Below the pieces are notes generated by a model. It saw only the letters and a program-made list of their open reading frames with translations, had not been told where the DNA came from and searched no databases. From Myxococcota bacterium (GTDB taxonomy: Bacteria; Myxococcota_A; UBA9160; UBA6930): a stretch of DNA of 64,000 nucleotides. Shown in pieces: positions 2,385 to 62,333 of the stretch (within the stretch, counting starts at the first letter, position 1; every line of letters starts with the position of its first letter). The stretch is taken from the NCBI GenBank assembly GCA_965223415.1, contig OZ245002.1, forward strand, positions 2,720,001 to 2,784,000. Reading direction: 5' to 3'. A program made the translations under genes and the position numbers.

Positions 2385-3071
2385 ATGCGACGGCTGTACC
2401 GAGCGATCGCGATCCTGATGCTCTTCGGAGTCGCGGCCTGGGCGAGCATCCCCGGCGCCACCCCGGGAAAGAACGCCGAGGGCCTGCTCCATGCCTGCGT
2501 CGACCACGAGCCGGGCCACCCGGAGTACATCGTCTGCGACGACCAGATCGGTGGCCAACGCGACGCGCCCTACACGGGCGCGGAATGCACCGCGGCGGGC
2601 CTGCCGCCGGTGTGCGTGATCGACTTCGTCGATGGCGCCCGGGCGCGCGGCCTGCTGACCCTCGTCTCCGACGAGACGGCCACCGGAGCCCGCGCCACTG
2701 CCACCTTCCGGTTCCGCGCCGGCGGCGTCCGTCACATCCTCGCCGACACCTTTGCCGACGACGTGCTCGGCAACTGGAACGGGATCACCAGCATCCTCGG
2801 CGAGGCGGCGGTGTTCGAGCAGGTCCCCTTCGAGGTGGCGCCGCACGAATACCAGTACATGACAGGCAACCTGGGCCCGATGGCCGACGAGATCACGGCA
2901 ATCGTCGACGCTGCGAGGCCCGCCGTCGACCTGAGCGGAGCGGTCCCCGTGTTCGTCGACATGGTGCCGAACCCGGACTCCTTGGAATCGGACCAGTCGG
3001 GCTTCGACGAGCCGCTGGCCTCCGTCGGCCGCCATCGGATCGAACTACACTTCGCGCGGCTGCGGCCCTGA
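2385..3071 (+). CDS. Secreted Cys-containing hypothetical protein (paralog A)
   Basis: GGAGG RBS, signal peptide, 4 Cys, strong similarity to the next ORF. Confidence 0.75.
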   Translation: MRRLYRAIAILMLFGVAAWASIPGATPGKNAEGLLHACVDHEPGHPEYIVCDDQIGGQRDAPYTGAECTAAGLPPVCVIDFVDGARARGLLTLVSDETATGARATATFRFRAGGVRHILADTFADDVLGNWNGITSILGEAAVFEQVPFEVAPHEYQYMTGNLGPMADEITAIVDAARPAVDLSGAVPVFVDMVPNPDSLESDQSGFDEPLASVGRHRIELHFARLRP

Positions 3072-3091
3072 GCGAAGGGGAGGAGAGCACC

Positions 3092-3787
3092 ATGCGTTTC
3101 CTGAGACACACCGCGGCCGTGGCCGCGCTGGCCGGAGTCGCTGCCTGGGCGAGCATCCCCGGCAACGTGGATCCCCGCTCCTTCGAGGGGCTGCTCCACG
3201 TCTGCGTCGACGAGGAGCCCGGCCATCCCCAGTACATCGTGTGCGACGACCAGGCCGGCGGCTTCCCGGACGCCCCGTACACGGGCGCCGAGTGCACCGC
3301 TGCGGGCTTGCCCGCGGCGTGCGAGATCGACTTCATCCCGGGCGCGAAGGCGAACGGTCTGCTCACCCTCATCGCCGACGACACGCCCTTCCCCGAGAAC
3401 CCGCGCACGACGATCCTGTATCGCTTCCGTGCGGGAGGTGCGCCGCACCTGGTGGCGGACACGTTCGACACAGACTCCCTGGGCAACTGGAATGCGCTCA
3501 ACATCGACGGCGGCGAGATCGCGGTGTTCGGGAACATCAGCACCCAGGACACCTCGGTCACCGAGTTCCAGTTCATGGACGGCAACCTCTCCGATCTCGG
3601 GGACGAGATCACGGCGATCGTCGACGCGGCCGAGCCGGGCATCGACCTCTCGGGAGCGGTCCCGGTCTTCATCGAGGCGACCCACCGGCCGGACAAGCTC
3701 GAGTCCGACCAGTCGGCCTTCGACCAGCCGCTGGCCTCGCTCGCCCGGCATCGGATGAAGGTCCGCTTCGCGAGACTGCGCCCCTAG
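3092..3787 (+). CDS. Secreted Cys-containing hypothetical protein (paralog B)
   Basis: AGGAG RBS, MRFLRHTAAVAALAGVAAWA signal; shares EGLLHxCVDxEPGHPxYIVCDDQ and the FARLRP C-terminus with paralog A. Confidence 0.75.
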   Translation: MRFLRHTAAVAALAGVAAWASIPGNVDPRSFEGLLHVCVDEEPGHPQYIVCDDQAGGFPDAPYTGAECTAAGLPAACEIDFIPGAKANGLLTLIADDTPFPENPRTTILYRFRAGGAPHLVADTFDTDSLGNWNALNIDGGEIAVFGNISTQDTSVTEFQFMDGNLSDLGDEITAIVDAAEPGIDLSGAVPVFIEATHRPDKLESDQSAFDQPLASLARHRMKVRFARLRP

Positions 3788-51609: not shown

Positions 51610-51642
51610 GTTACTCTGGATTGGAGATCTACTATCTAGTTA
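51610..51642 (+). other. Putative integron attI site, interrupted by an IS at its core
   Basis: Removing the IS restores ...ctatcTAGTTAGGC (GTTRRRY) before cassette 1; no upstream RYYYAAC partner seen, so not an attC. Confidence 0.5.
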
Positions 51643-53301
51643 CTTCCCGTCCAAGAACTCGTAAGTCACTGAGAAGAAAAGGAATTGGCGCAAACGCGCC
51701 TCCCGATCGAGTTGCGATTGGTGTATGTTAGGTGGTGCCAACCTACCGAACATACACAGCAATTCGCCAACCGGGGGGTGAAGCGATGCGCCAATTCCGA
51801 GAAACTCAGCTCTCACTCACGCCCACATGGGGTCCGCATCAACATACCCGAGAGCTGCAGATGATCGCCAGGATCCTCGGGGCGGATCCGCGCTTGGGTG
51901 CTGTTGTGCACGGAGATCTGATCGGGGAACGTCGCGCCGATACCGGCCGTCGGGGCCTCAGCGGCGATCAGGTCCTTCGAATCGCCCTACTCAAGCAGAT
52001 CCACGGGCTGAGCTACCGGGAGTTGGAGTTTCACCTCCAGGACTCGGCCGCCTTCCGCAGCTTCGTAGGACTCGGGCTTGGTGACTGGCCCCGCTTCCAG
52101 ACCCTTCAGGACAACGTCAAACGGATCCGGCCCGAGACGTGGGAAGCCATCCACCGTGCGTTGATCGGCCTGGCTCGCCGGGAAGGAATCGAACGAGGCG
52201 AGACGATTCGGGCGGATACGACGGTCGTCGAGGCGAACATCCACGAGCCCGCCGACTCGGCCCTGCTCTGGGACAGCGTTCGGGTGATGACGCGGATTTT
52301 GCGAAGGATGGCGAAGCAACGCCCTTCGCTGCGCAAGATGTTCCCGGATCGTCGTCGTTGCGTGAAGCGACGCGCCTACGCGATCAAGTTCCACCGGCGG
52401 TCGATCAACCTGGTCGCGAGCTATCGGTGCATGATCCGGGCCACGGAAGAGGTCTGCCAAGCGGCCCGTAGCGTCGCGGAGAGGGTCGCCCGAGTCGAAG
52501 ACACGACGCCGCTTCGCGAAGAGCTCCTCGCGGTGCTTCCCCTCGTCGAGCGCGTCATCGATCAGAGCCGTCGCCGTGTCCTCGAAGGCGAGCGCGTCCC
52601 TGCAGCCGAGAAGATCGTGTCGATCTTCGAGCCGCACTCGGACATCCTCGTGAAGGACAATCGAGGCACCTACTACGGTCACAAGGTCTGTCTGACTGGC
52701 GGCAGGTCGTCACTCGTCCTCGACTGTGTCATCGAGGAAGGAAACCCTACGGACTCGACGCTGGTCGAACGTACGCTCGAGCGCCATGCAGATCTCTTCG
52801 GCAAGGCACCCCGCCAAGTGGCGATGGACGGAGGCTTCGCGTCCATGGACAACGTTGCCAAGGCCAAGGCGCTCGGCGTGGAAGACATGGCCTTCAACAA
52901 GAAGAGCGGACTCGAGGTCCACGAGATGGTGCGCAGCGCCTGGGTCTTCCGGCGCCTTCGTGACTTCCGCTCGGGGATCGAGGGCGTGATCTCGACGCTC
53001 AAGCGAGCGTTCCAGATGGACCGATGCACCTGGCGGGGCCTGGCGTCCTTCAAGGCCTATGTCTGGGCCAGTGTGACGAGCTTCAACCTCGTCGCCTTGG
53101 CCCGCCACCTGCTGACTCGCGAGTTCGCCTGAACCCCTGAGAGTGGTTCGGTCGGTGGACACGTGCGCCCGCGCATCGGAACACGGTCGCTCACTCACCC
53201 CGACGGCTCCGGGACTGCTGTGACATCGCTACTCTCAACGCCCGCGAAGACCGCCAACGATCCACTAAGAGGCCGACGAACGGCTCTTCTCGGACGGGAA
53301 G
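51643..53301 (+). mobile_element. ISNCY/IS5-like insertion sequence
   Basis: 15-bp IRs CTTCCCGTCC(A/G)AGAA (14/15); 6-bp TAGTTA duplication at 51637-51642 and 53302-53307. Confidence 0.9.
51786..53132 (+). CDS. DDE transposase (ISNCY-like)
   Basis: RADTTVVEANIHEPADSALL, KIVSIFEPH, AMDGGF, FRSGIEGVIS. Confidence 0.9.
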   Translation: MRQFRETQLSLTPTWGPHQHTRELQMIARILGADPRLGAVVHGDLIGERRADTGRRGLSGDQVLRIALLKQIHGLSYRELEFHLQDSAAFRSFVGLGLGDWPRFQTLQDNVKRIRPETWEAIHRALIGLARREGIERGETIRADTTVVEANIHEPADSALLWDSVRVMTRILRRMAKQRPSLRKMFPDRRRCVKRRAYAIKFHRRSINLVASYRCMIRATEEVCQAARSVAERVARVEDTTPLREELLAVLPLVERVIDQSRRRVLEGERVPAAEKIVSIFEPHSDILVKDNRGTYYGHKVCLTGGRSSLVLDCVIEEGNPTDSTLVERTLERHADLFGKAPRQVAMDGGFASMDNVAKAKALGVEDMAFNKKSGLEVHEMVRSAWVFRRLRDFRSGIEGVISTLKRAFQMDRCTWRGLASFKAYVWASVTSFNLVALARHLLTREFA

Positions 53302-53318
53302 TAGTTAGGCGTCGCGAC

Positions 53319-53672
53319 ATGGAAACTAAGCCCAGGCGGTCTCTGGCGTCGCAGCTTCGCTCATCTGTCGAGCGGCTCGCGGCGCGTGGCGTCGAGCAAG
53401 TCGCCTGGGTCGAGCGCCAGGGCGTCCACGCTGATGAGCTGGCTCTAGACTTCTCGGACGCAGTGCTCCCCGCGGTAGTCAATCTCTCCAACGAGTTCAC
53501 GCCGGAGTTGCTCCTGCGACTAGAGCTCCTCGACGATCAGCTCTCGTCAATGTCGGGCACAGCCAAGGCTAGATTATGGACCAGCGCTTCAATCCTCAAC
53601 GACCCAGCCTGGGGGCGGGTGCGCACCCTGGCACAAGTTGCGCTCGATGCGCCCGGCTGGCCGCCGCTGTAG
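53319..53672 (+). CDS. Gene cassette 1: hypothetical protein
   Basis: ORF between GTTAGGC (53304) and GCCTAAC (53683). Confidence 0.75.
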   Translation: METKPRRSLASQLRSSVERLAARGVEQVAWVERQGVHADELALDFSDAVLPAVVNLSNEFTPELLLRLELLDDQLSSMSGTAKARLWTSASILNDPAWGRVRTLAQVALDAPGWPPL

Positions 53673-53682
53673 TGTGCGCGGC

Positions 53683-53811
53683 GCCTAACAAGCGGCTGCA
53701 GCTGACGGCTCCAAGCACCCTTCAAACGGCCATGGTAGCCTGGGGTTGTTCCTTGGCCGGTTCAGCGGGCGTCGGGGCCGTCGCCGCAGCTGAGCCGCCG
53801 GTCCGTTAGGC
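53683..53811 (+). other. Integron attC site 1 (129 bp, intact)
   Basis: R'' GCCTAAC ... R' GTTAGGC; inner arms GCGGCTGCAGCTG / CAGCTGAGCCGC. Confidence 0.9.
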
Positions 53812-53818
53812 GGCTGGA

Positions 53819-54298
53819 ATGCGACCGCTCGGCAGACTTCTGGCGCTTGTTCTCCTCTCTGCCTGCAGCGAGTCGCCGGCCGAGAAGGTGCTTTCGCGAG
53901 TGGAAGAGAGCGGCCCGCAAGCAGTGATCGCTCAGCTCTTTCAGTCGGACACCGAGTGGACGGAGCTGAGTCGAAACATCGAGTCTGGCGACGACGCGTG
54001 GCTTCGCGTTGCGGCAAGCTTGCGCCCGGGTAGCGATGCGGGTTCAGCACTCAGTCTGATCTACTCGGTCGCACGTGCGATCCCGGCAAATCCCCACGGA
54101 GTTCTCTCGCTCGCGAAGGAAGGCCACTTCTCGATCGAGCTGATCTGCACGTCTCCGTTCATTGAGCCGGAGCCGGGAATCGCCGAGAGGTTCGCGGAGA
54201 AGGCATCGGAAGCCCTCTCGACCGTGCAGGACCCCCACCTCCTTCAGGTACGCGACGAATGCGTCACAAGAGTTCAACTGCCCCAGCCAGCCGCCTAA
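53819..54298 (+). CDS. Gene cassette 2: lipoprotein
   Basis: Lipobox LSAC; stop codon TAA lies inside the R'' GCCTAAC. Confidence 0.82.
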   Translation: MRPLGRLLALVLLSACSESPAEKVLSRVEESGPQAVIAQLFQSDTEWTELSRNIESGDDAWLRVAASLRPGSDAGSALSLIYSVARAIPANPHGVLSLAKEGHFSIELICTSPFIEPEPGIAERFAEKASEALSTVQDPHLLQVRDECVTRVQLPQPAA

Positions 54299-54317
54299 CC
54301 AGCGGCTGCAGCTGACC
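54293..54317 (+). other. attC site 2, left part (split by the IS1111-type element)
   Basis: GCCTAACCAGCGGCTGCAGCTGACC, nearly identical to the attC1 start. Confidence 0.88.
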
Positions 54318-54563
54318 CGTTTAGGGAGTGTCAACTCCAATGATCGCGAAGCACGTGTGGGTCTTGGTGGTGTCCTCCAACGGAATCGGCTTGCGTCCCT
54401 GCGGGTTCGGGTTCAGTCCAAACGCGTTGTCGGCCTCGTGGGCTCAATGAGGGGTTCGGGGCGACGGTGGTGAATCGGGGCCAAGGGCTCATGGGCCGCA
54501 GTCAGCTGCCCGCCTACCGTCTTCGTTGGAACACAAGCGAGAAGGGGTCCTGGGGGAGCGGGG

Positions 54564-55164
54564 CTACGCCATGCCAAGGCACCTCCGGAGATCGAAGGCC
54601 TCGCCGCGGGTGAGCGTGACCCAGACGCTGACGAGGAGTCTGCGAGCCAAGGCCATGCGGACCTTGTTCTTGTGGACGCGGGTCCGCATCGTCTTCGCCC
54701 AGGCACGAACCAACGGGTCGTCCTTCATCAGGCGAACCGCCCATTGGCTGACGATCCAGCGGAGCTCGGCCTGGCCTTGGCGGGTCATGCGGCCGTGGTG
54801 GGCGTGGTCGGCTGACTGGTTCACCTTGGGGGTGAAGCCGGCGAAGGCCGAGACCGCACGGGGGCCTCGGAATCGGTGCGGGTCGCCGATCTCGGCGAGC
54901 AGCGTGGCAGCCGATTGCGTCCCGATGCTCGGGAGCTCCTGCTCGAGGGCCTGGACGTCGGGATCCTCTCGCCCGATCCGTCGGATCTCCCGATCGAGAG
55001 CCAGCACCTGGCCCTGCAGGCTATCGAGCACCTGGAGCAGGGCCTTGAAGGCGGTCTGCATCTCCAGGGTCGGCAGGGTGACGGTGCGGAGCTTCTCCCG
55101 GCTCGGCTTGGTATAGAGCGCGCTCGTGGGAGCGGGAATCCGGTAGGCGTTCAGGAAGCCCCGG
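54564..55164 (-). pseudogene. IS110-family transposase, C-terminal fragment
   Basis: LPSIG..SAATLLAEIGD..RF, AFAGFTP..NQSA; joins in frame to the N-terminal fragment (NQLRG|FLNAY). Confidence 0.88.
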
Positions 55165-55299
55165 TGTCGAGGGACGTCATCTCTTGCGCGCTAAGAGGAC
55201 GGCTAGTTTTGCGCACCCCCCTGGGTTGATGTTCGGTTCTTCCTTCTTCTCTTCCGCTCTCCGAAGGAGAGCACGGCCGTCAGGCCGCCCTCTGGGGCC

Positions 55300-56100
55300 T
55301 CAACGCTGGGCGCTTTGCCCCGCGGCCTGCTCGAGCTCGCGGAGCCGGTAGCTCCGCCCCGAGATGTTGAGCACCTGGCTGTGGTGGAGGAGGCGATCGA
55401 GGATGGCGGTGGCCAGCACCTCGTCGCCCGCCAGCACCTCGGGCCAGTCGGCGATGCCCTTGTTCGTGGTGATCAGGATCGAGCCCCTCCCATAGCGGTA
55501 GGAGACGAGCCGGAAGAAGAGGCTCGCCTCCTGGCGCGTCATGGGCTCGAAGCCGACCTCGTCGATGACGAGGAGCGCCACGTTCATGTGCTTGCGCCGC
55601 CGCAGCCGTTGCGGGCTGATCTCGGCGTCGCGCTTGAGGGCCGCCAGCAGGTCCTCGAGGCGATGGAAGGCCACGGAGAAGCCGTTCTCCACGGCCCGCA
55701 CCCCCAGGGCCACCGCCAGGTGGGTCTTGCCCACTCCCGGCGGACCCTGGATCAGCAGACTCTCCTTGGCCCGGATCCACGCGCAGGTGCCCAGCGTCTC
55801 GATCCGGCTCCGCTCCACACTCGGCTGGAAGGCGAAGTCGAAGTTGCCGAGGGTCTGCCCCGTGGGAAGGCCCGAGAGACGGAGCGAGGTCTTCATCCTC
55901 CGCTCCTCGCGGTGCTGCAGCTCGGCCTCGAGCAGCAGGTCGAGGAAGCGGTGGGGCACGAGGTCGTCCTTGGTCGCTCGGGCCAGCTCCTCGCCGATGT
56001 GCTCGGCCGCGTGATGGAGGCCGAGGCGCACGAGCCGCTCGCGGGTCGGGTCGAGATCCACCTTGCCGCCCTTCTTGGGCACCGGGTTTCCCGCCGTCAT
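55300..56100 (-). CDS. istB: IS21 helper ATPase
   Basis: FDFAFQP, GPPGVGKTHL, LVIDEVG, AILDRLLHH. Confidence 0.94.
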   Translation of the reverse strand: MTAGNPVPKKGGKVDLDPTRERLVRLGLHHAAEHIGEELARATKDDLVPHRFLDLLLEAELQHREERRMKTSLRLSGLPTGQTLGNFDFAFQPSVERSRIETLGTCAWIRAKESLLIQGPPGVGKTHLAVALGVRAVENGFSVAFHRLEDLLAALKRDAEISPQRLRRRKHMNVALLVIDEVGFEPMTRQEASLFFRLVSYRYGRGSILITTNKGIADWPEVLAGDEVLATAILDRLLHHSQVLNISGRSYRLRELEQAAGQSAQR

Positions 56101-57383
56101 CGCGCCACCTCCGCCAGATCGGCATAGAGGTCGATCGGCCGCTGCTCCGGCTCCATCGCCCACAGCTCCTGGAGGCGTCGACCCATGCGCCCGAGCGGTA
56201 CGGGCGCCTCCACCCCCTCCGTGCTCGGCCCCTCGTAGTGGCTCGGGTCCAGCAGCAGGCGGCTTCGCGTGTGGCGCGGGTGCGCGGCCACCACCGAGCC
56301 CTCGGCCCAGACCTGCACCTGCCGGGCGCAGCCGCGCACCTCGACGCTCTGCTCGACGAAGCGGAAGGGGACGCTGTAGGTACGCCCCTCGAAGCGCACC
56401 GTGGCGTCGCGCCCGACACGTCGCATCACGGCCAGGTCGAAGGGCTCGGGAAGCCGCTCGGGCAGGGCCCCGAGATGGGGCTTCTCCGCCTCCCACGCCT
56501 GGAAGACCGTCGTGCCCGTCGCCGGGCACTGCCGCCGGTGGCTCGAGCGCGCCACCTGGCCGTCCGTCCACGCTTGCAGCGACTCCAGGCTCTCGTGCTC
56601 CCGCCGACGCGGATCGAAGCCCCGCCGGTGCCCCAGGATCCGACGCTCCACCTTCCCCTTCTCCTGCGGCTGGCGGGGACGGGTGGCGTCCACGTGGAAG
56701 CGAAGGGCCCCGGCATAGCTCGCGTAAGCCGGGTTCACCGTCCCCCATGGCCCCGCCCCCTTCGCCACCGCTGTCTTCACGTTGTCGACCCGCAGCACCG
56801 CCGGCACCCCGCCCAGCCGCTCGAAGGCCCGGTTGTGCACGTCCAGCCACGCCAGCGTGTCCGCCCGCTCCGACCACACCACCGCTTCTCGCCGCGAGTG
56901 CGAGAGCACCAGGTGGAAGGCATGCAGGTCCACCTCCTGGCCCCCGATCCGCACGCCCGGAAACTCGCCCCAGTCCACCTGACCCTGCGCCCCGGGCGGT
57001 GTCTCCACCCGACGCCGGCTCCGCACCTTCGGTCTCGGGAACCGGGCCCGCACGTACCGCTGCACGCTCTTGGAGCTCCCCGTGTACCCGTGCTCCTCCA
57101 CCAGGAACTCGTGAAGCTCCTGCAGGTTCACGCCACGGCCTCCCGAGCTCGCCTCCAGCCACTCCGCGATCACCTCGTGGACCGCCTCGGCCAGGAAGGG
57201 CTTCCCGCTCCGGCCGTCTCGCGCCCCCTCCGCCAGCCGCTTCAGCCGGTAGCGCACCGCGCTCTCCCGGATCCCCAGCTGGCGGGCGATCTCCCGGTTC
57301 GAGCACCCCCGCTCGTGCAGCACTTCGATCGTCATCACTTCCTCCTGCCTCAGTCGCCGCTGCCCCACGCCCCCCTCCCTCAC
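56097..57383 (-). CDS. istA: IS21 transposase
   Basis: HTH, ETPPGAQGQVDWG, VDNVKTAV, EKGKVER, YSVP. Confidence 0.94.
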   Translation of the reverse strand: MREGGVGQRRLRQEEVMTIEVLHERGCSNREIARQLGIRESAVRYRLKRLAEGARDGRSGKPFLAEAVHEVIAEWLEASSGGRGVNLQELHEFLVEEHGYTGSSKSVQRYVRARFPRPKVRSRRRVETPPGAQGQVDWGEFPGVRIGGQEVDLHAFHLVLSHSRREAVVWSERADTLAWLDVHNRAFERLGGVPAVLRVDNVKTAVAKGAGPWGTVNPAYASYAGALRFHVDATRPRQPQEKGKVERRILGHRRGFDPRRREHESLESLQAWTDGQVARSSHRRQCPATGTTVFQAWEAEKPHLGALPERLPEPFDLAVMRRVGRDATVRFEGRTYSVPFRFVEQSVEVRGCARQVQVWAEGSVVAAHPRHTRSRLLLDPSHYEGPSTEGVEAPVPLGRMGRRLQELWAMEPEQRPIDLYADLAEVAR

Positions 57384-57466
57384 GGGGAACGTGCCGCGCA
57401 GCGGCTCAACAGGAGGTGCGCAAATCTACGTGTCCTCTTAGCCCTCGAATATCACGTCCTGCGACA

Positions 57467-57921
57467 CCCCGGAGCTGGTTCACGGCCTGTTGGCGCATCT
57501 GGACGAGGCGGTGGCGGACCCGAAGGAGCTTCCTCCTCCCGTACTCCTCGTCGCTCGGGTAGTAGGTCGTTGCCACCCGATCCAGATCACCGAGCCAGAG
57601 CCGGCGTGCAATCTCGGCTGCATCTCGCCGGTCCGTCTTCTTGCCGAGCTTCTTCAGGTCGAGCTTGCGCGGATCACAGACCAGAACGTCGAGCTGCGCC
57701 TCTCGGCAGGCGTTGACGAACCACCGGTTGAGGCCCAACGCCTCGACGGCTACGCGGCAATGGGGTCCGAAGAACTTCAGCCGCTCCACGACCCCGAGGC
57801 CCTGTTCAAGGCTCTCGGAGCGGATCCTCTCCTCGGCGATCTTCTCACCCCGCGCATCCAGCACGCAGATCTGGATCACGGTGCGATGCAAGTCGATCCC
57901 AGCGAAGTACTCTGTCGTCAT
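57467..57921 (-). pseudogene. IS110-family transposase, N-terminal DEDD fragment
   Basis: AGIDLH, VAVEA, KTDRRDA. Confidence 0.88.
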
Positions 57922-57999
57922 GGTCAGTCTCCTTGGGGAGTGTTTGTTGGAACACAGCCAAGGTGGCTGTTCTCCAAGGAGCTGACCTCCCTATACCCT

Positions 58000-58103
58000 C
58001 CGGGCCCCGCTCGTCCCAATCGAGGCATGATACCCTGGGGTTCCACTCAGGTGGCTCGGCGAGCCTCGGGGCCGGCCCGGCAGCTGAGCCGCCAGTCCGT
58101 TAG
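58000..58103 (+). other. attC site 2, right part (R' hit by the IS110 element)
   Basis: ...CAGCTGAGCCGCCAGTCCGTTAG; removing both IS110 elements gives 129 bp, the same length as attC1. Confidence 0.88.
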
Positions 58104-58118
58104 ATACTCCCTTCGTCG

Positions 58119-59114
58119 TCAACCCTTCGTGGCGAAGAATTTCTCGCCAAGGAAGTCCTGGTCGTGGCGGAGCATGCCGTAGATGGCGTGGAGCAGCTTC
58201 CGCATGACGGCGACGAGTGCTTGCATCTTGGTTTTGCCCTTGGAGAGCAGCTTCTCGTAGAAGGCCTTCACGTTCGGTTCCCAGCGTGCAGCGACCATCG
58301 CAGGAAGAAAGAGTGCGCGGCGAAGGTGGGCGTTGCCGGTCTTGCTGATGCGAGCTGGCTTGTGCACAGAGGTGCCCGATTGAAACTGTCGGGGGTCGAG
58401 GCCCGCATGCGCGACCCATTGCCGGGTCGTCATGTCCTTGGGCAAGGTGCCTAGCTCGGCGAGCAACTGGATGCCGGCTGCGTCGGCGATACCCTTGATC
58501 GATGTGATGTGGCCGAAGTCTCTGGCGAGCTCGGGGCTCTGCTCGATCACCTTCAACGCTTGCTTGCGCAGCCGATCGATTCGCCCCTCCAGGAGCTCGA
58601 TCAGTTCGCGGATGTCTTGCTTCACGAACTCACTGAGCTCCTCGCTCTGGTCGTTGGCATGGAGCCGGTTCTTCTCCTGCGTCACGGTCTTGCTCAGAGC
58701 CTCCACGCGGCGGGAGAGGGCCCGTACCTCCAGAATTCGGGGGTCCGGCGGAGTCCAGGCGGAAAACTCCATGCGCATTCCGAACTCGAGAATCGTTTCC
58801 GCATCGAGCGCATCCGTCTTGGAGCGTTGAAGCGATGCCTTGGCGAACGCGGCAATGGCCCGCGGGTTCGCCACCATCACCTGGGACGCCTTCGCACGGT
58901 GAAGCGCGAACGCGAGGTCGAGGCCGTACACCCCGGTCGATTCCAGGACGACGCGCGCCGTCGCATTCCCCTTCGTGGCCCACCGAATCAGCCTCTGGTG
59001 GCCCTTGGGATCGTTCGCAAAGACCAGCCCGCCCTCGCGAGTTCCGTTCCGGTCGATGGCGACGACGAGCTCCTTCGCCCCGACGTCCACGCCCACGTAA
59101 TGACACTTCTTCAA
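58119..59114 (-). CDS. IS110-family bridge recombinase
   Basis: GVDVG, VLESTG, KTDALDA (DEDD), AHAGLDP..FQSGTS, ISKTGN..LR; GGAGG RBS and TTG start. Confidence 0.93.
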   Translation of the reverse strand: MKKCHYVGVDVGAKELVVAIDRNGTREGGLVFANDPKGHQRLIRWATKGNATARVVLESTGVYGLDLAFALHRAKASQVMVANPRAIAAFAKASLQRSKTDALDAETILEFGMRMEFSAWTPPDPRILEVRALSRRVEALSKTVTQEKNRLHANDQSEELSEFVKQDIRELIELLEGRIDRLRKQALKVIEQSPELARDFGHITSIKGIADAAGIQLLAELGTLPKDMTTRQWVAHAGLDPRQFQSGTSVHKPARISKTGNAHLRRALFLPAMVAARWEPNVKAFYEKLLSKGKTKMQALVAVMRKLLHAIYGMLRHDQDFLGEKFFATKG

Positions 59115-59149
59115 GGTCTCTCCTCCCCGTGATAAGCTGGGACCCGGGT

Positions 59150-59340
59150 CTCCCGACCCTGCACATTCACCTACGGACCTTGTAGACGCAGGCTCTCGGG
59201 CCTCGGATACTCCACGGCATGGGTGACGAGGGCGGGAGGCCCATCTAACGGACAAGCTCTCTGGCTTCAGGCAGCGACGGCCTTTCCCGGGAACCCATCT
59301 CGGAGTCTCACTCAGGCCCGAAGAGCCTGCTCAGAGGTAC
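59150..59340 (-). ncRNA. Predicted bridge RNA (ends approximate)
   Basis: Guides matching target and donor flanks at 59269-59277, 59245-59253, 59206-59213 and 59179-59184; each pair separated by a small hairpin. Confidence 0.82.
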
Positions 59341-59343
59341 AAG

Positions 59344-59461
59344 GCGGCGCCCTGCGAACGGCGAGACTCGACCACTTGATCGCGCTTGTCTGTCTTGTCG
59401 CAGTCAGCTTTGGCTGCGTGAACCCAAGCTCCTCATCACGAATTCGCATCTTCGTGAGCGA
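59344..59461 (+). pseudogene. Gene cassette 3 remnant (lipoprotein-like N-terminus) truncated by IS21
   Basis: LIALVCLVAVSFGC lipobox-like stretch; frame runs into the IS end. Confidence 0.5.
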
Positions 59462-59541
59462 CCCTCGGTGGACGTCTGAAAACCGGCCAAAGGTGGACGT
59501 CTCAAAGGCGGCCAAAGGGCCGCGCCCAGGACAGAGGGGTT

Positions 59542-60303
59542 CTACCGCGCCGGAGCCTCCTTCGGCAAGGCCGTGGTCTTCTTGGTGCGCCAGCTGCGGG
59601 GTCCGCACTTGAGCAGGTGGCCGTGGTGGAGGAGGCGGTCGAGCATGGCGGTGACGGCTGCCGTGTCGCCGAGGAGCCGGCCCCAGTCGTCGACGGGTCG
59701 GTTCGAGGTGACGAGGGTGCTGGTGCGCTCGTAGCGGCGCATGATGAGCTCGAGCAGGTCCTCGGCGGCCGTGGTGGGGAGCTTGCGCATGCCGAGGTCG
59801 TCAAGGATGAGCAGCGGCACGCTCGCCATCTCGGCCAGGTACTCCTTGCGGGTGCCGTCGAGGGTCGCATCAGCGAGTTCCTCGAGGAGGACGTGGACCT
59901 CGCGGTAGGCGACGCGATGGCCCTGGTGGATGACGGCGAGGCCGATCGCCTGGGCGAGATGGCTCTTGCCCGTGCCCGGCGGGCCGAGGAAGACAGCGTC
60001 CTCGGCTTGCTCGAGGAAGCGGCCCGTGGCGAGCTCGAAGACCAGGGCGCGATCGATCTTCGTATTGAAGCGGAAGTCGAAGCCGTTGAGGGTCCGGTTG
60101 GCGTCGCGGAAGCGGGCCTGCTTGATGCGCCGGGCCAGCAGTCGGTCCTGCCGGCGCTCGAGCTCGTCCTGGACGAGCGCCGAGAGCAGGTCGATGGCCG
60201 CCCACTCGCCCTTCTGGGCTTCGAGGAGCCGCATCTCCAGATGCTCGGCCATGCCCGAGAGCCGGAGCTTGCGCAGTGCGGGATCGAGTTCAGTCAGATT
60301 CAC
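59542..60303 (-). CDS. istB: IS21 helper ATPase
   Basis: FDFRFN, GPPGTGKSHL, LILDDLG, AMLDRLLHH. Confidence 0.93.
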   Translation of the reverse strand: MNLTELDPALRKLRLSGMAEHLEMRLLEAQKGEWAAIDLLSALVQDELERRQDRLLARRIKQARFRDANRTLNGFDFRFNTKIDRALVFELATGRFLEQAEDAVFLGPPGTGKSHLAQAIGLAVIHQGHRVAYREVHVLLEELADATLDGTRKEYLAEMASVPLLILDDLGMRKLPTTAAEDLLELIMRRYERTSTLVTSNRPVDDWGRLLGDTAAVTAMLDRLLHHGHLLKCGPRSWRTKKTTALPKEAPAR

Positions 60304-61879
60304 GAGAGGTCTCCTCGGTGCGGCGATCGATGAGATCGCGGTAGTGGGTGAGCTGGCGGATGAGCGGGTCCACCTGCTTGAGCGAGAGCGGCAGCTCGGG
60401 CTGACGCTCCAGGTAGCGCTTGACGAACGCGTAGGTGGGCAGCTCGAGGGCCAGGGCGGTGGCGCAGGCATCGTCGACGCGAGGGATGCCGTGGCGCTTG
60501 CACAGGGAGAGCACGCCCAGGATGCGACGCACCCCGGGCTCGCCGTCCAGGCGATGGATCGCCTCACACACCTCGCCCACGTGGACGCCGGCGCGCCGGG
60601 CCCGCGCGAGCAGCTGGAGGGTCGTGGCCGGCGTCCGCTTCGGGCGGTCCTCCTCCCGCATCCTGCGGCGCCCCCGCCTCTGGCGGACGTGCTCGCGCAG
60701 CAGCTCCCCCGTCTGCAGATCGAGCATCCGCACCCGCAGCCCGTCCCATTGGACGGCCACCCGCCGCCCCAGCCAGCCCGGCGGCGCGTGGTAGTAGGCC
60801 CCCTCCACCTCGATGGCCCCGTCGAGGTGCACCGTGCGCTCGCCGTGCTGGTAGTAGCGGAAGGGCTCGATGGGAAGCCCGAGCAGGTGCGGCTTCTCCT
60901 CTTCGTACATCGCCGCCACCTGGCGCTTGGTCGTGCCGTGGATGCGGGTGTCGGCCCATCGGCGCTCCCAGCGGTCGAGGTAGGCCTGGGCCTGCTCGAG
61001 CGACTCGAAGCGCATCCCGCGGACCTTCTGCTGCGCGTGGCGCACCCCGGACTCGACCTTCCCCTTGCGATCGGGGTGGCGCACCCGGCACGGAAGCGCC
61101 GTCACGCCGTAGTGGGCGAGCACATCGCGGTAGAGGGGGTTGAGCGCGGGGTCGTAGACGTCGGGCTTGAGAACGCCCTCCTTGAGGTTGTCGAGGACGA
61201 CGGTGCGCGGTGCACCGCCCAGCCGGCGGAAGGCCTTCTCGTGCAGCTCCGACCAGACCTGGCTGCTCGACTTCCACACGAGCAGCCGAACGCACTTGCG
61301 GCTGTAGCCCAGGGTGAAGACGAACAGCCTCGTGCGCCGGTACTTCCCCGACCCGGGATGCCGCACCATCGGCCCGTCGCCGTAGTCGACCTGGCCCTCT
61401 TCTCCCGGTGCCGTCTCGATCACCGGGTGCGCCTCGCGCGGCGCCGCGGCTCGCTGCTTCGCCACGAAGCGCTTCACACTCGCATAGCTGAAGGCGAAGC
61501 CGTGGTCATCGACTAGGTCCTGCCAGATCGCCATCGCCGTCCGGCCCTGGCGCACGCCCGCCTCGATCCACTCGCGGTAGGGCTCGCAGGCGCTGGCCTG
61601 GGGGCTCCGGCCCGGCATCGGCGGCCAGGCCGGATCGGTGGACGCCTCTTTGGCCGCTTTTGCCGGGGCCTTCGAGTCGGTGGACGCCTCTATGGCCGGG
61701 TTTGGGGCCCCGTGCCCCCAGCGACCAGGAGATCGCACCGCGATCCCCGCGGCCCGGAGGTAACGGCTCGCCGTCTCCCGGCGCACGCCCGTCGCCTCCT
61801 CGATCCGCCGAAGCGACCAGCCGAGGCGGCCAAGTGCCAGAATCTGCTCGCGTTTCTCGTTGCCCAGAAGGTTCGCCAT
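60290..61879 (-). CDS. istA: IS21 transposase
   Basis: ETAPGEEGQVDYG, LDNLKEGV, RKGKVESGV, RIHGTT. Confidence 0.93.
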   Translation of the reverse strand: MANLLGNEKREQILALGRLGWSLRRIEEATGVRRETASRYLRAAGIAVRSPGRWGHGAPNPAIEASTDSKAPAKAAKEASTDPAWPPMPGRSPQASACEPYREWIEAGVRQGRTAMAIWQDLVDDHGFAFSYASVKRFVAKQRAAAPREAHPVIETAPGEEGQVDYGDGPMVRHPGSGKYRRTRLFVFTLGYSRKCVRLLVWKSSSQVWSELHEKAFRRLGGAPRTVVLDNLKEGVLKPDVYDPALNPLYRDVLAHYGVTALPCRVRHPDRKGKVESGVRHAQQKVRGMRFESLEQAQAYLDRWERRWADTRIHGTTKRQVAAMYEEEKPHLLGLPIEPFRYYQHGERTVHLDGAIEVEGAYYHAPPGWLGRRVAVQWDGLRVRMLDLQTGELLREHVRQRRGRRRMREEDRPKRTPATTLQLLARARRAGVHVGEVCEAIHRLDGEPGVRRILGVLSLCKRHGIPRVDDACATALALELPTYAFVKRYLERQPELPLSLKQVDPLIRQLTHYRDLIDRRTEETSRESD

Positions 61880-61988
61880 GGCGGCGGGGGATCGCAGGTC
61901 CCTCGCCGTCGTCAACGTCCTGGGCGTCAGCCCCTATGGCCGCTTTTCAGACGTCCTTCTATGGCCGGTTTTGGGTGTCCACCGAGGG

Positions 61989-62301
61989 CCTCGAAGACCG
62001 GGAGGCCGAGGGCACGGGCCGCCTGCTTGCACATCTCGAACTGGGGCGCGAGATCGTCGGGAACCTCGTCGCCCCGCGAGGCCTTGTAGCCCGGGAAGGC
62101 GTCGTTCCGGAACGACGTCATTGCGAAGTCGAAGCAGCAGGCCATGTGGGTCGGCTCCTGCTCCGAGAGGAGCCGCAGCAGCGTGTTGGTGAAGCCGTAG
62201 GCCGCCTGAGTGGCCGTCTCGCCGTCCGGCCCGAGCATCTCCGGCAGCGAGAAGTACGCCCGGAAGACGTAGACATGCGCATCGATCAGATGAACGAGCA
62301 T
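61989..62301 (-). pseudogene. 5'-3' exonuclease (FEN/Pol I N-terminal-like), truncated by IS21
   Basis: LIDAHVYVFRAYF, AYGFTNTLL, CFD..SFRN..FPGYKASR; frame cut at the IS end. Confidence 0.85.
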
Positions 62302-62333
62302 CGACAACTTAACAAACGAAACCGGCCCCTATC

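Follow-up and report, generated by a model that had tools for sequence, protein, structure and literature searches.

An IS621-type insertion sequence in a Myxococcota genome with predicted bridge-RNA guides matched to the integron attC R' box

What directs an insertion sequence to one dinucleotide at the edge of an integron recombination site? The question is raised by an IS110-family element, here named IS110-A, on the minus strand of a 64-kb stretch of the genome of a Myxococcota bacterium (contig OZ245002.1, positions 2,720,001 to 2,784,000; 71% G+C), referred to below as the window. We find that IS110-A is probably a sequence-intact element of the IS110 group, in the branch that contains IS621 and ISCro4, with RNA guides set to the R' box of an integron attC site, and we give this joint reading a probability of about 0.85. 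The element measures 1,238 bp without its core copies (58104-59341). The interval of the initial annotation, 58102-59343, is correct in its coordinates; what it spans is the element plus both core copies. The annotation had also called the element intact, and with a full-length open reading frame (ORF) and complete ends it is intact in sequence. From its right end (RE) to its left end (LE), the parts of IS110-A are the following.

58102-58103, minus strand: core dinucleotide CT (AG on the plus strand) at the junction of the RE with the right target, read from the junctions
58104-58123, minus strand: right end (58104-58118) and, overlapping the stop codon, an outward-facing -35-like TTGACG (58118-58123), from the junction reading
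58119-59114, minus strand: transposase/recombinase gene, TTG start, 331 aa, from Pfam, NCBIfam and the IS621 alignment
59115-59341, minus strand: upstream non-coding end (LE), putative bridge-RNA region, scaffold conserved in relatives and matched by a covariance model
59342-59343, minus strand: core dinucleotide CT (AG on the plus strand) at the junction of the left target with the LE, read from the junctions

Both ends are defined by the junctions. On the plus strand the RE junction reads ..GCCAGTCCGTT-AG(58102-58103)/ATACTCCC.. (or, with another length of flank, ..CCAGTCCGTT-AG/ATACTCCC..) and the LE junction reads ..GGTACA/AG(59342-59343)-GCGGCGCC, the slash marking the element boundary. 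On the element strand the junctions become GCGCCGC-CT/TGTACC...GGGAGTAT/CT-AACGGAC, with ends GGAGTAT-CT-..-CT-TGTAC, and this reading bears out the CT core and the GGAGTAT and TGTAC ends that had been proposed. Excision in silico of IS110-A with one core copy yields GTCCGTTAGGCGGC (GTCCGTT-AG-GCGGC), identical to the unoccupied site at 53801-53814, where the empty attC1 reads GTCCGTTAG GCGGC; the restored junction of the initial annotation is therefore confirmed. The ends, RE ..GGAGTAT and LE TGTACC.., agree with the conserved ends of relatives and of IS621. No inverted match of 6 nt or more is found between the first and last 40 nt of the element, where neither terminal nor subterminal inverted repeats are found, and its non-coding DNA is distributed as 227 nt upstream of the gene and 15 nt downstream.

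The product of the gene carries the domains DEDD_Tnp_IS110 (PF01548, 3.8e-26, 92 bits) and Transposase_20 (PF02371, 1.5e-20, 74 bits) and matches the NCBIfam family NF033542, 'IS110 family RNA-guided transposase', with 218 bits at a cut-off of 140. It is 36% identical to the IS621 transposase across 319 aa. Residues D10, E58, D101, D104 and S246 align with D11, E60, D102, D105 and S241 of IS621 and are invariant across 26 homologs; these, D, E, D, D and the serine of the SG motif, we take from the IS621 literature to be the catalytic residues. The transposases of ISCro4 (4e-49) and IS621 (2e-46) are the nearest solved structures among sequence matches to the PDB. More than 100 public proteins are 64-88% identical to that of IS110-A, nearly all of them from contigs of 1-3 kb.

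IS621 and ISCro4 are bridge recombinases (Durrant et al. 2024, PMC11208160; PDB 8wt6, 9t56), and the RNAs of IS110-family elements have also been described as seekRNAs (Siddiquee et al. 2024, PMC11187229). Does IS110-A encode such an RNA? We retrieved 79 related loci from species genomes with a 26-protein alignment and find that their upstream regions share a strongly conserved common scaffold. In alignment A3, which holds the RNA regions of 46 distinct relatives, RNAalifold detects an outer stem closing a hairpin-split loop, followed by a nested set of stems closing a second hairpin-split loop. After removal of one spurious 2-bp helix, six helices with 23 pairs remain, which are 98.4% paired across the 46 relatives and of which 12 show changes on both sides (91 cells); 10 of 55 distinct RNA regions had been excluded because their hairpins had long insertions, their target loops were damaged, an N run adjoined them or they were near-duplicates, and the pair counts are thereby biased toward structure. 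None of 500 shuffles matches the observed percentage of pairing, the number of pairs changed on both sides, the number of such cells or the covariation score, and the count of further pair types does not exceed that of shuffles (258/500). When the partners are slid by one column, pairing falls to about 56%. Changes on both sides are seen in 2 of the 4 pairs of helix 2, in 8 and 16 sequences, and in 3 of the 4 pairs of helix 6. The covariance model from homologs that the initial annotation had proposed was built from A3 (model R1), and its sole match in the window lies at 59133-59295, with 172 bits; the alignment covers the model in full (163 positions) and flags no pair as broken. Applied to an IS621 copy, R1 aligns to the donor loop with 12.2 bits (E = 0.002 in a 2-kb search). 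The two-loop layout first read from a single copy is thus conserved in relatives and upheld by compensatory changes. Within this scaffold we read the following features, all on the minus strand and in the order in which the RNA would run.

59313-59329, minus strand: 5' stem-loop CAGGC-tcttcgg-GCCTG, read from the sequence, outside alignment A3
59269-59277, minus strand: left target guide (LTG) TCGCTGCCT, 7/9 against the left flank GCGCCGCCT, or 8/9 when a U:G wobble is allowed
59254-59267, minus strand: target-loop hairpin AAGC-cagaga-GCTT, helix 2, columns 33-36 / 50-53
59245-59253, minus strand: right target guide (RTG) GTCCGTTAG, 9/9 complementary to CT-AACGGAC, that is core plus right flank
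59206-59213, minus strand: left donor guide (LDG) GGAGTATC, 8/8, equal to the GGAGTAT of the RE followed by the core C
59190-59203, minus strand: donor-loop hairpin AGGC-ccgaga-GCCT, helix 6, columns 108-111 / 130-133
59179-59184, minus strand: right donor guide (RDG) TACAAG, 6/6 complementary to CT-TGTA of the LE, with ACAAG conserved family-wide

The guide positions and scores (LTG 7/9, RTG 9/9, LDG 8/8, RDG 6/6), already given in the initial annotation, hold on reading; the LTG is compared against the left flank plus core. The 9-mer GTCCGTTAG occurs exactly three times in the window, in two attC arms and in the RTG itself. That the guide matches exceed chance is shown on the relatives and not on the IS110-A copy alone. 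An RTG was found by regular expression in 73 loci, the other six having no recognisable loop, and two loci with damaged target loops (L039, L040) were left out of the statistics. Over the seven non-core bases, 63 loci for the RTG and 53 for the LTG give 41 and 48 unique pairs of guide and flank. The RTG matches its own right flank at 5.05/7 positions on average and permuted flanks at 2.64, and the LTG its own left flank at 4.48/7 and permuted flanks at 2.71; for both guides 0 of 10,000 permutations reach the observed value, and the outcome is unchanged with one pair per distinct guide. Guides and targets covary across relatives, as the initial annotation had anticipated. Individual cases illustrate this: the retargeted locus L033 carries GTCCCGAAG against CTTCGGGAC (9/9), the retargeted L048 matches 9/9 on both sides, and in L024 a T-to-C change in the guide is accompanied by an A-to-G change in the target. 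Likewise, RTGs in ..TCCGTTAG pair with CGGAT spacers and RTGs in ..TTCGTTAG with CGAAT spacers. On the donor side, the LDG and the RE end co-vary by eye in relatives, with the variants AGAAT, AGTGT and AGTCT.

The target of IS110-A lies in a short cassette array on the plus strand, of which three stretches are needed here.

53683-53811, plus strand: attC1, an empty site with the same R' junction, a GCCTAAC...GTTAGGC hairpin of 129 nt and -67.3 kcal/mol
54293-54317, plus strand: left part of attC2 (R'' GCCTAAC and L'' arm), 24/25 nt identical to the start of attC1
57988-58103, plus strand: right part of attC2 (L' arm and R' box to GTTAG), target of IS110-A, 84% identical over 51 nt to the attC1 arm

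attC1 is the sole complete hairpin of its kind in the window, and 0 are found in three shuffles. It is an imperfect palindrome that folds end to end, its 5' arm having an extra G and a shorter spacer, and it shows the pairing of R'' RYYYAAC with R' GTTRRRY, the extra-helical base and the unpaired spacer by which attC sites are recognised. Its R' side matches the RTG of IS110-A at 9/9 and the LTG at 6/9, and its R'' side matches the RTG at 6/9. A first cassette ORF (53319-53672, plus strand, 117 aa) is followed by attC1, and a second (53819-54298, plus strand, 159 aa) has its stop codon inside the R'' box GCCTAAC at 54293-54299. The stretch 54287-54299 is complementary at each of its 13 nt to 53805-53817, where the cassette to which it belongs begins, and over their first 13 bases the cassettes match their own R'' flanks by complementarity at 13/13 and 12/13 positions. 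An ORF followed by an attC site, with a cassette start complementary to it, is the textbook anatomy of an integron cassette. From this anatomy it follows that the plus strand is the top strand, so that IS110-A lies in the R' box of a second attC, antisense to the cassettes; its insertion point is 2-4 nt from the integrase crossover G/TT. The cassette ORFs 53319-53672 and 53819-54298 match no Pfam or NCBIfam family; the second begins with MRPLGRLLALVLLSAC, which reads as a lipoprotein-type signal with a lipobox.

The relatives share this target. Among loci with a readable right flank, 30 of the 31 with an RTG in ..GTTAG are inserted at CTAAC, as against 0 of 34 with other RTGs. A complete hairpin starting at the insertion box is present in 14 of 29 testable CTAAC/CTGAC loci versus 1 of 19 others; the hairpin partner of L044 looks spurious, and that of L046 is a short non-attC hairpin. 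A strict scan of the 79 loci gives 45 intact attC-like hairpins, 43 of them in attC-target loci, some being counted twice because L050 and L051 overlap on one contig. In some relatives the hairpins form arrays of 3-9 at a spacing of 450-800 nt, and in two loci, L005 and L010, the element has an integron integrase at a distance of 1-3.5 kb (TIGR02249; 433 and 427 bits, cut-off 265). The remainder of the attC is on the RE side of the element in every case read. At intact sites of the betaproteobacterial arrays (L050, L051) the RTG agrees with the R' side at 7-9/9 and with the R'' side at 5-6/9, and at some other loci it scores the two sides alike. In a transposase tree built from 68 of 80 sequences (no stop codon, no N, adequate length), which the removal of 12 duplicates reduced to 56 distinct ones, IS110-A belongs to a well-supported clade of 8 (100/99). 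All 6 members of this clade with a readable right flank are inserted at CTAAC; the contigs of the other two, L002 and L013, stop before the flank, and both carry ..GTTAG guides. Elsewhere in the tree, other attC-targeting groups and retargeted lineages are interleaved. The protein, the upstream non-coding end, the RNA, the guides and the attC targets of relatives all favour the proposal, made in the initial annotation, of an IS621-type recombinase specialised for cassette junctions.

How would such an element move? By analogy with IS621 we infer that the RNA is transcribed, that a circle is formed, that the enzyme is catalytic and that recognition proceeds via base pairing. IS110-A would excise as a circle joining RE and LE over the CT core (GGAGTAT-CT-TGTAC), and the joint would put the outward -35 of the RE ahead of the LE. 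The LE would then be transcribed into a bridge RNA with two internal loops, whose donor loop (LDG GGAGTATC, RDG TACAAG) would pair with both strands of the circle junction. The target is predicted to be the bottom strand of the attC R' box (GTTAGGC), the adjacent unpaired spacer and the first bases of the next cassette, and the DEDD/Ser recombinase would exchange strands at the CT core. TTGAnn stands at a fixed RE position in 29 of 32 distinct RE/LE pairs, and in 16 of these 29 the RE-LE joint places TAnnnT 17 nt after the -35.

Some observations weigh against the reading of IS110-A as an attC-directed IS621-type element, among them the selection bias in the pair counts named above. The single-sequence fold of 59114-59343, which the initial annotation had suggested as a check, proves uninformative: its minimum-energy structure is unrelated to the scaffold, with z = -0.71, no better than shuffles. 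In Rfam no family matches 57000-60500 at E <= 1. The circle junction of IS110-A would read TTGACG, 17 nt, TACCTC, with a poor -10, and a scan of 58000-59500 finds no sigma-70-like promoter in the integrated copy. The LTG has two mismatches to its actual left flank, and one copy of the element is visible in the window. Fifteen of the 29 CTAAC/CTGAC loci failed the strict hairpin test; several of them read by eye as attC sites whose R' box departs from the consensus, and some may be non-attC. With only some three attC sites, the local array is short and heavily invaded by other insertion sequences, and no integron integrase is found among the 45 window ORFs scanned, a set filtered by codon-position G+C and not exhaustive, so that the array may be an integrase-less attC cluster.

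Is IS110-A, then, a dead relic whose RNA or enzyme no longer works and whose guide matches are merely historical? The single visible copy, the weak junction -10, the two LTG mismatches and a neighbourhood that is an insertion-sequence graveyard, with other elements broken, would all suit such a history. It is set against a full-length ORF in which every catalytic residue is present, two complete ends, an RNA that scores 172 bits over 163/163 model positions with no broken pair flagged, and a level of LTG mismatch that is typical among relatives. We therefore regard a relic as unlikely, while counting it the alternative to be taken most seriously.

Considerably less room is left for the idea that the target repeats are other palindromic, REP-like repeats and that attC targeting is a mislabel. 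REP sequences are frequent targets of IS110-family elements (the reference list of Durrant et al. 2024; ISPa11), and with no integrase among the window ORFs scanned and one complete hairpin in the window the locus could be read in this way. However, the repeats show boxes of the form RYYYAAC/GTTRRRY, a spacer that is unpaired and one additional base in one of the arms; they stand behind small ORFs, one of which ends with its stop codon within R'', and the cassette starts are complementary to their own R'' flank. The arrays of relatives, with their spacing of 450-800 nt, and the TIGR02249 integrases adjoining two loci speak for integrons likewise, and we hold the mislabelling to be very improbable.

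A further alternative is that the target is chosen by the folded single-stranded structure of attC, as by the integron integrase, the guide-like matches being secondary. The attC targets are all hairpins, and the orientation of the insertion relative to the hairpin is constant. Yet close relatives with changed guides are found in matching sites that are neither hairpins nor attC (L048, 9/9 and 9/9; L037, L042, L045), and the RTG tells R' from R'' by the spacer (7-9/9 versus 5-6/9 in L050 and L051, 9/9 versus 6/9 in attC1), so that selection by structure is hardly tenable. Membership of IS110-A in the known IS1111 group at attC (ISPa21, ISKpn4, ISPst6 and others) has next to no probability, for although the two share a superfamily and a class of target site, and the attC-targeting elements named in the surveyed parts of the literature are only of that group, the non-coding region of IS110-A is upstream and not downstream, subterminal inverted repeats are lacking, the bottom-strand match stands 5' of the top-strand match in the IS110-type order (according to the part of PMC11187229 cited), and the nearest characterised proteins are those of IS621 and ISCro4; the label is ruled out by layout.

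With IS110-A thus read as an IS621-type element directed to attC, what is new in it is modest: the IS621 branch too has members with guides set to the attC R' box, and they recur across several phyla. IS621-type elements at attC sites occur in metagenome-assembled genomes (MAGs) labelled Myxococcota/Deltaproteobacteria, Gemmatimonadota, Spirochaetota, Acidobacteriota and Betaproteobacteria, and their insertion point falls immediately on the cassette side of the integrase crossover G/TT. Insertion of IS1111 elements at attC was reportedly described by Tetu & Holmes in 2008 and Post & Hall in 2009. Both such attC targeting (2008-2009, 2024) and bridge-RNA recombination (2024) were already established. 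The family offers a natural, many-fold replicated case of guides that co-vary with the host's own attC family, and it raises the question of whether the insertions silence cassettes, preserve them or hitch-hike on their mobility. The invariant end of the element rebuilds a consensus R' box at insertion (GTT-AG-AT = GTTRRRY), and the occupied attC of L001, L009 and L011 still passes the hairpin test; given the rebuilt GTTAGAT and these occupied sites, the element might ride as part of a cassette. A broad IS621-type set would then be specialised on the attC R' box, the attC might stay recombinogenic, and the element, as the first part of the downstream cassette, could be integrase-mobile cargo. 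In that event excision and re-insertion could be carried out by the integron integrase, and a second, integrase-driven route between genomes would be available. The ..AGTAT end is common to non-attC relatives and to IS621, which counts against cassette-riding as an adaptation, and we consider this extension a long shot.

Several observations on the relatives stand apart from this argument. In a subclade of L004, L005, L007 and L013 the core is AT at the left junction and CT at the right, and the LTG ends in ..CAT; in L007 the partner R' box of the occupied attC is GTTATGC. Target and donor cores seem here to be naturally unequal, each junction having retained a different dinucleotide. A single family member is present at least 10 times on one Latescibacterota chromosome (L067-L075, L079), always within runs of CTCCCGTCT-like short repeats that are matched at 7-9/9 by the LTG CTCGCCTCT. 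In L010, a MAG labelled Spirochaetales, the integron integrase (2830-3756, minus strand) is inverted, being oriented toward the cassette side, an arrangement said to have been reported for spirochaete integrons. Different IS110-family genes are found a few kb from attC-inserted copies in L009 (3521-4768 and 7618-8814) and L022 (1529-2737), and likewise in L052 (7102-8403) and L061 (6629-7750), and the cassette arrays of these genomes seem to collect several IS110-family lineages.

In the window itself a second, unrelated IS110-family element (54318-57987, minus strand) lies inside the same attC2, in the L'' arm, flanked by the 8-bp direct repeat AGCTGACC (54310-54317, 57980-57987). Its gene is split into halves, 57406-57921 and 54564-55061, by an IS21 element, and has a short non-coding region upstream and one of about 245 nt downstream, an IS1111-like layout; the direct repeat GT.TT.GTTGGAACACA stands on both sides of it (54519-54535, 57940-57956). 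The gene has no BLASTP similarity to IS110-A, and its N-terminal half (57406-57921) is without a match in the plasmid collection. Two IS21-family elements with IstA and IstB are present, at 55190-57442 and 59459-61972, with about 75-80% mutual similarity in places. Of these, the first sits inside the second IS110-family element; the other follows IS110-A closely on its downstream side and borders on a polA-like gene that is truncated (61927-62307, minus strand): no more than ~126 codons from the start of a DNA polymerase I / 5'-3' exonuclease gene (NCBIfam PRK05755, 93 bits) are present, the reading frame running into the end of the IS21 element and the rest of the gene not being seen in the window. 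At the head of the array, an ISNCY-family element (51636-53308; transposase 51732-53132, NF033593, 435 bits) has imperfect inverted ends of 22 nt; on its right it borders directly on the GTTAGGC with which the first cassette begins (53304-53310), and the left flank does not resemble attC, a sign that the array head may have undergone rearrangement or deletion.

How does IS110-A stand beside the systems already on record? The named attC-targeting elements in the surveyed parts of the literature, ISKpn4, ISPst6 and ISPa25, are all of IS1111 type, in agreement with the initial annotation, and a full-text literature search finds no description of attC targeting by an IS110-type (non-IS1111) element. 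In the portion of the main text of Durrant et al. 2024 available here attC occurs only in the reference list, and the supplements of PMC11187229 contain none of the motifs searched. Nevertheless, members of the family are already present, unremarked, in a published supplementary alignment: in the accessible part of that of Durrant et al. 2024, at least some rows combine this scaffold with guides in ..CGTTAGAT and with targets like ..GCCTAACG.. The suggestion that the element might be undescribed thus stands as far as papers describing IS110-type attC targeting go, and fails in that RNAs of the same scaffold are already rows in that supplement. It is the bridge RNAs (Durrant et al. 2024) and seekRNAs (Siddiquee et al. 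2024) that make the mechanism of IS110-A explicable.

Like IS621, IS110-A has a transposase of about 330 aa with DEDD and Ser residues, an upstream non-coding end, a CT core, the ends ..AGTAT and TGTA.. and an outward -35 in the RE. The RNA loops also correspond, with a target loop made of LTG, hairpin and RTG, then AGAU, and a donor loop made of LDG (..AGUAUC), hairpin and RDG (..CAAG). An IS621 copy on an E. coli plasmid has the flanks ATCAGGC-CT/TGTATT and ACAGTAT/CT-ACG and the loop ATCGGGCCT-hairpin-..GCGTAG-AT. The two differ in that IS110-A targets the attC R' box whereas IS621 targets the REP-like ATCAGGC-CT-ACG, in the length of the RTG match (9 nt in IS110-A, about 5 in the IS621 copy read), in the 71% G+C of the host of IS110-A and in a diverged scaffold, of which only the donor loop aligns (12 bits). 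ISEc21, an IS110-type seekRNA element whose RNA is needed for circle formation and insertion (PMC11187229), resembles IS110-A in its upstream non-coding region and order of strand matches; it differs in belonging to another IS110 sub-branch (345-385 aa) and in using a linear site inside IS3-family transposase genes. With the IS1111 elements at attC (ISKpn4, ISPst6, ISPa25, ISPa21) IS110-A has in common a DEDD transposase, an RNA from the element's own non-coding region and insertion at one end of attC sites. The IS1111 elements, however, have the non-coding region downstream, the reverse order of strand matches and subterminal inverted repeats (PMC11187229), and by the criteria of the same paper the upstream non-coding end makes the layout of IS110-A IS110-type and not IS1111-type. 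Group IIC-attC introns (PMC3001079) are likewise RNA-guided mobile elements that home to attC, but they are retroelements with a wholly different mechanism. To these the IS621-type elements add a third kind of RNA-guided invader of integron cassettes.

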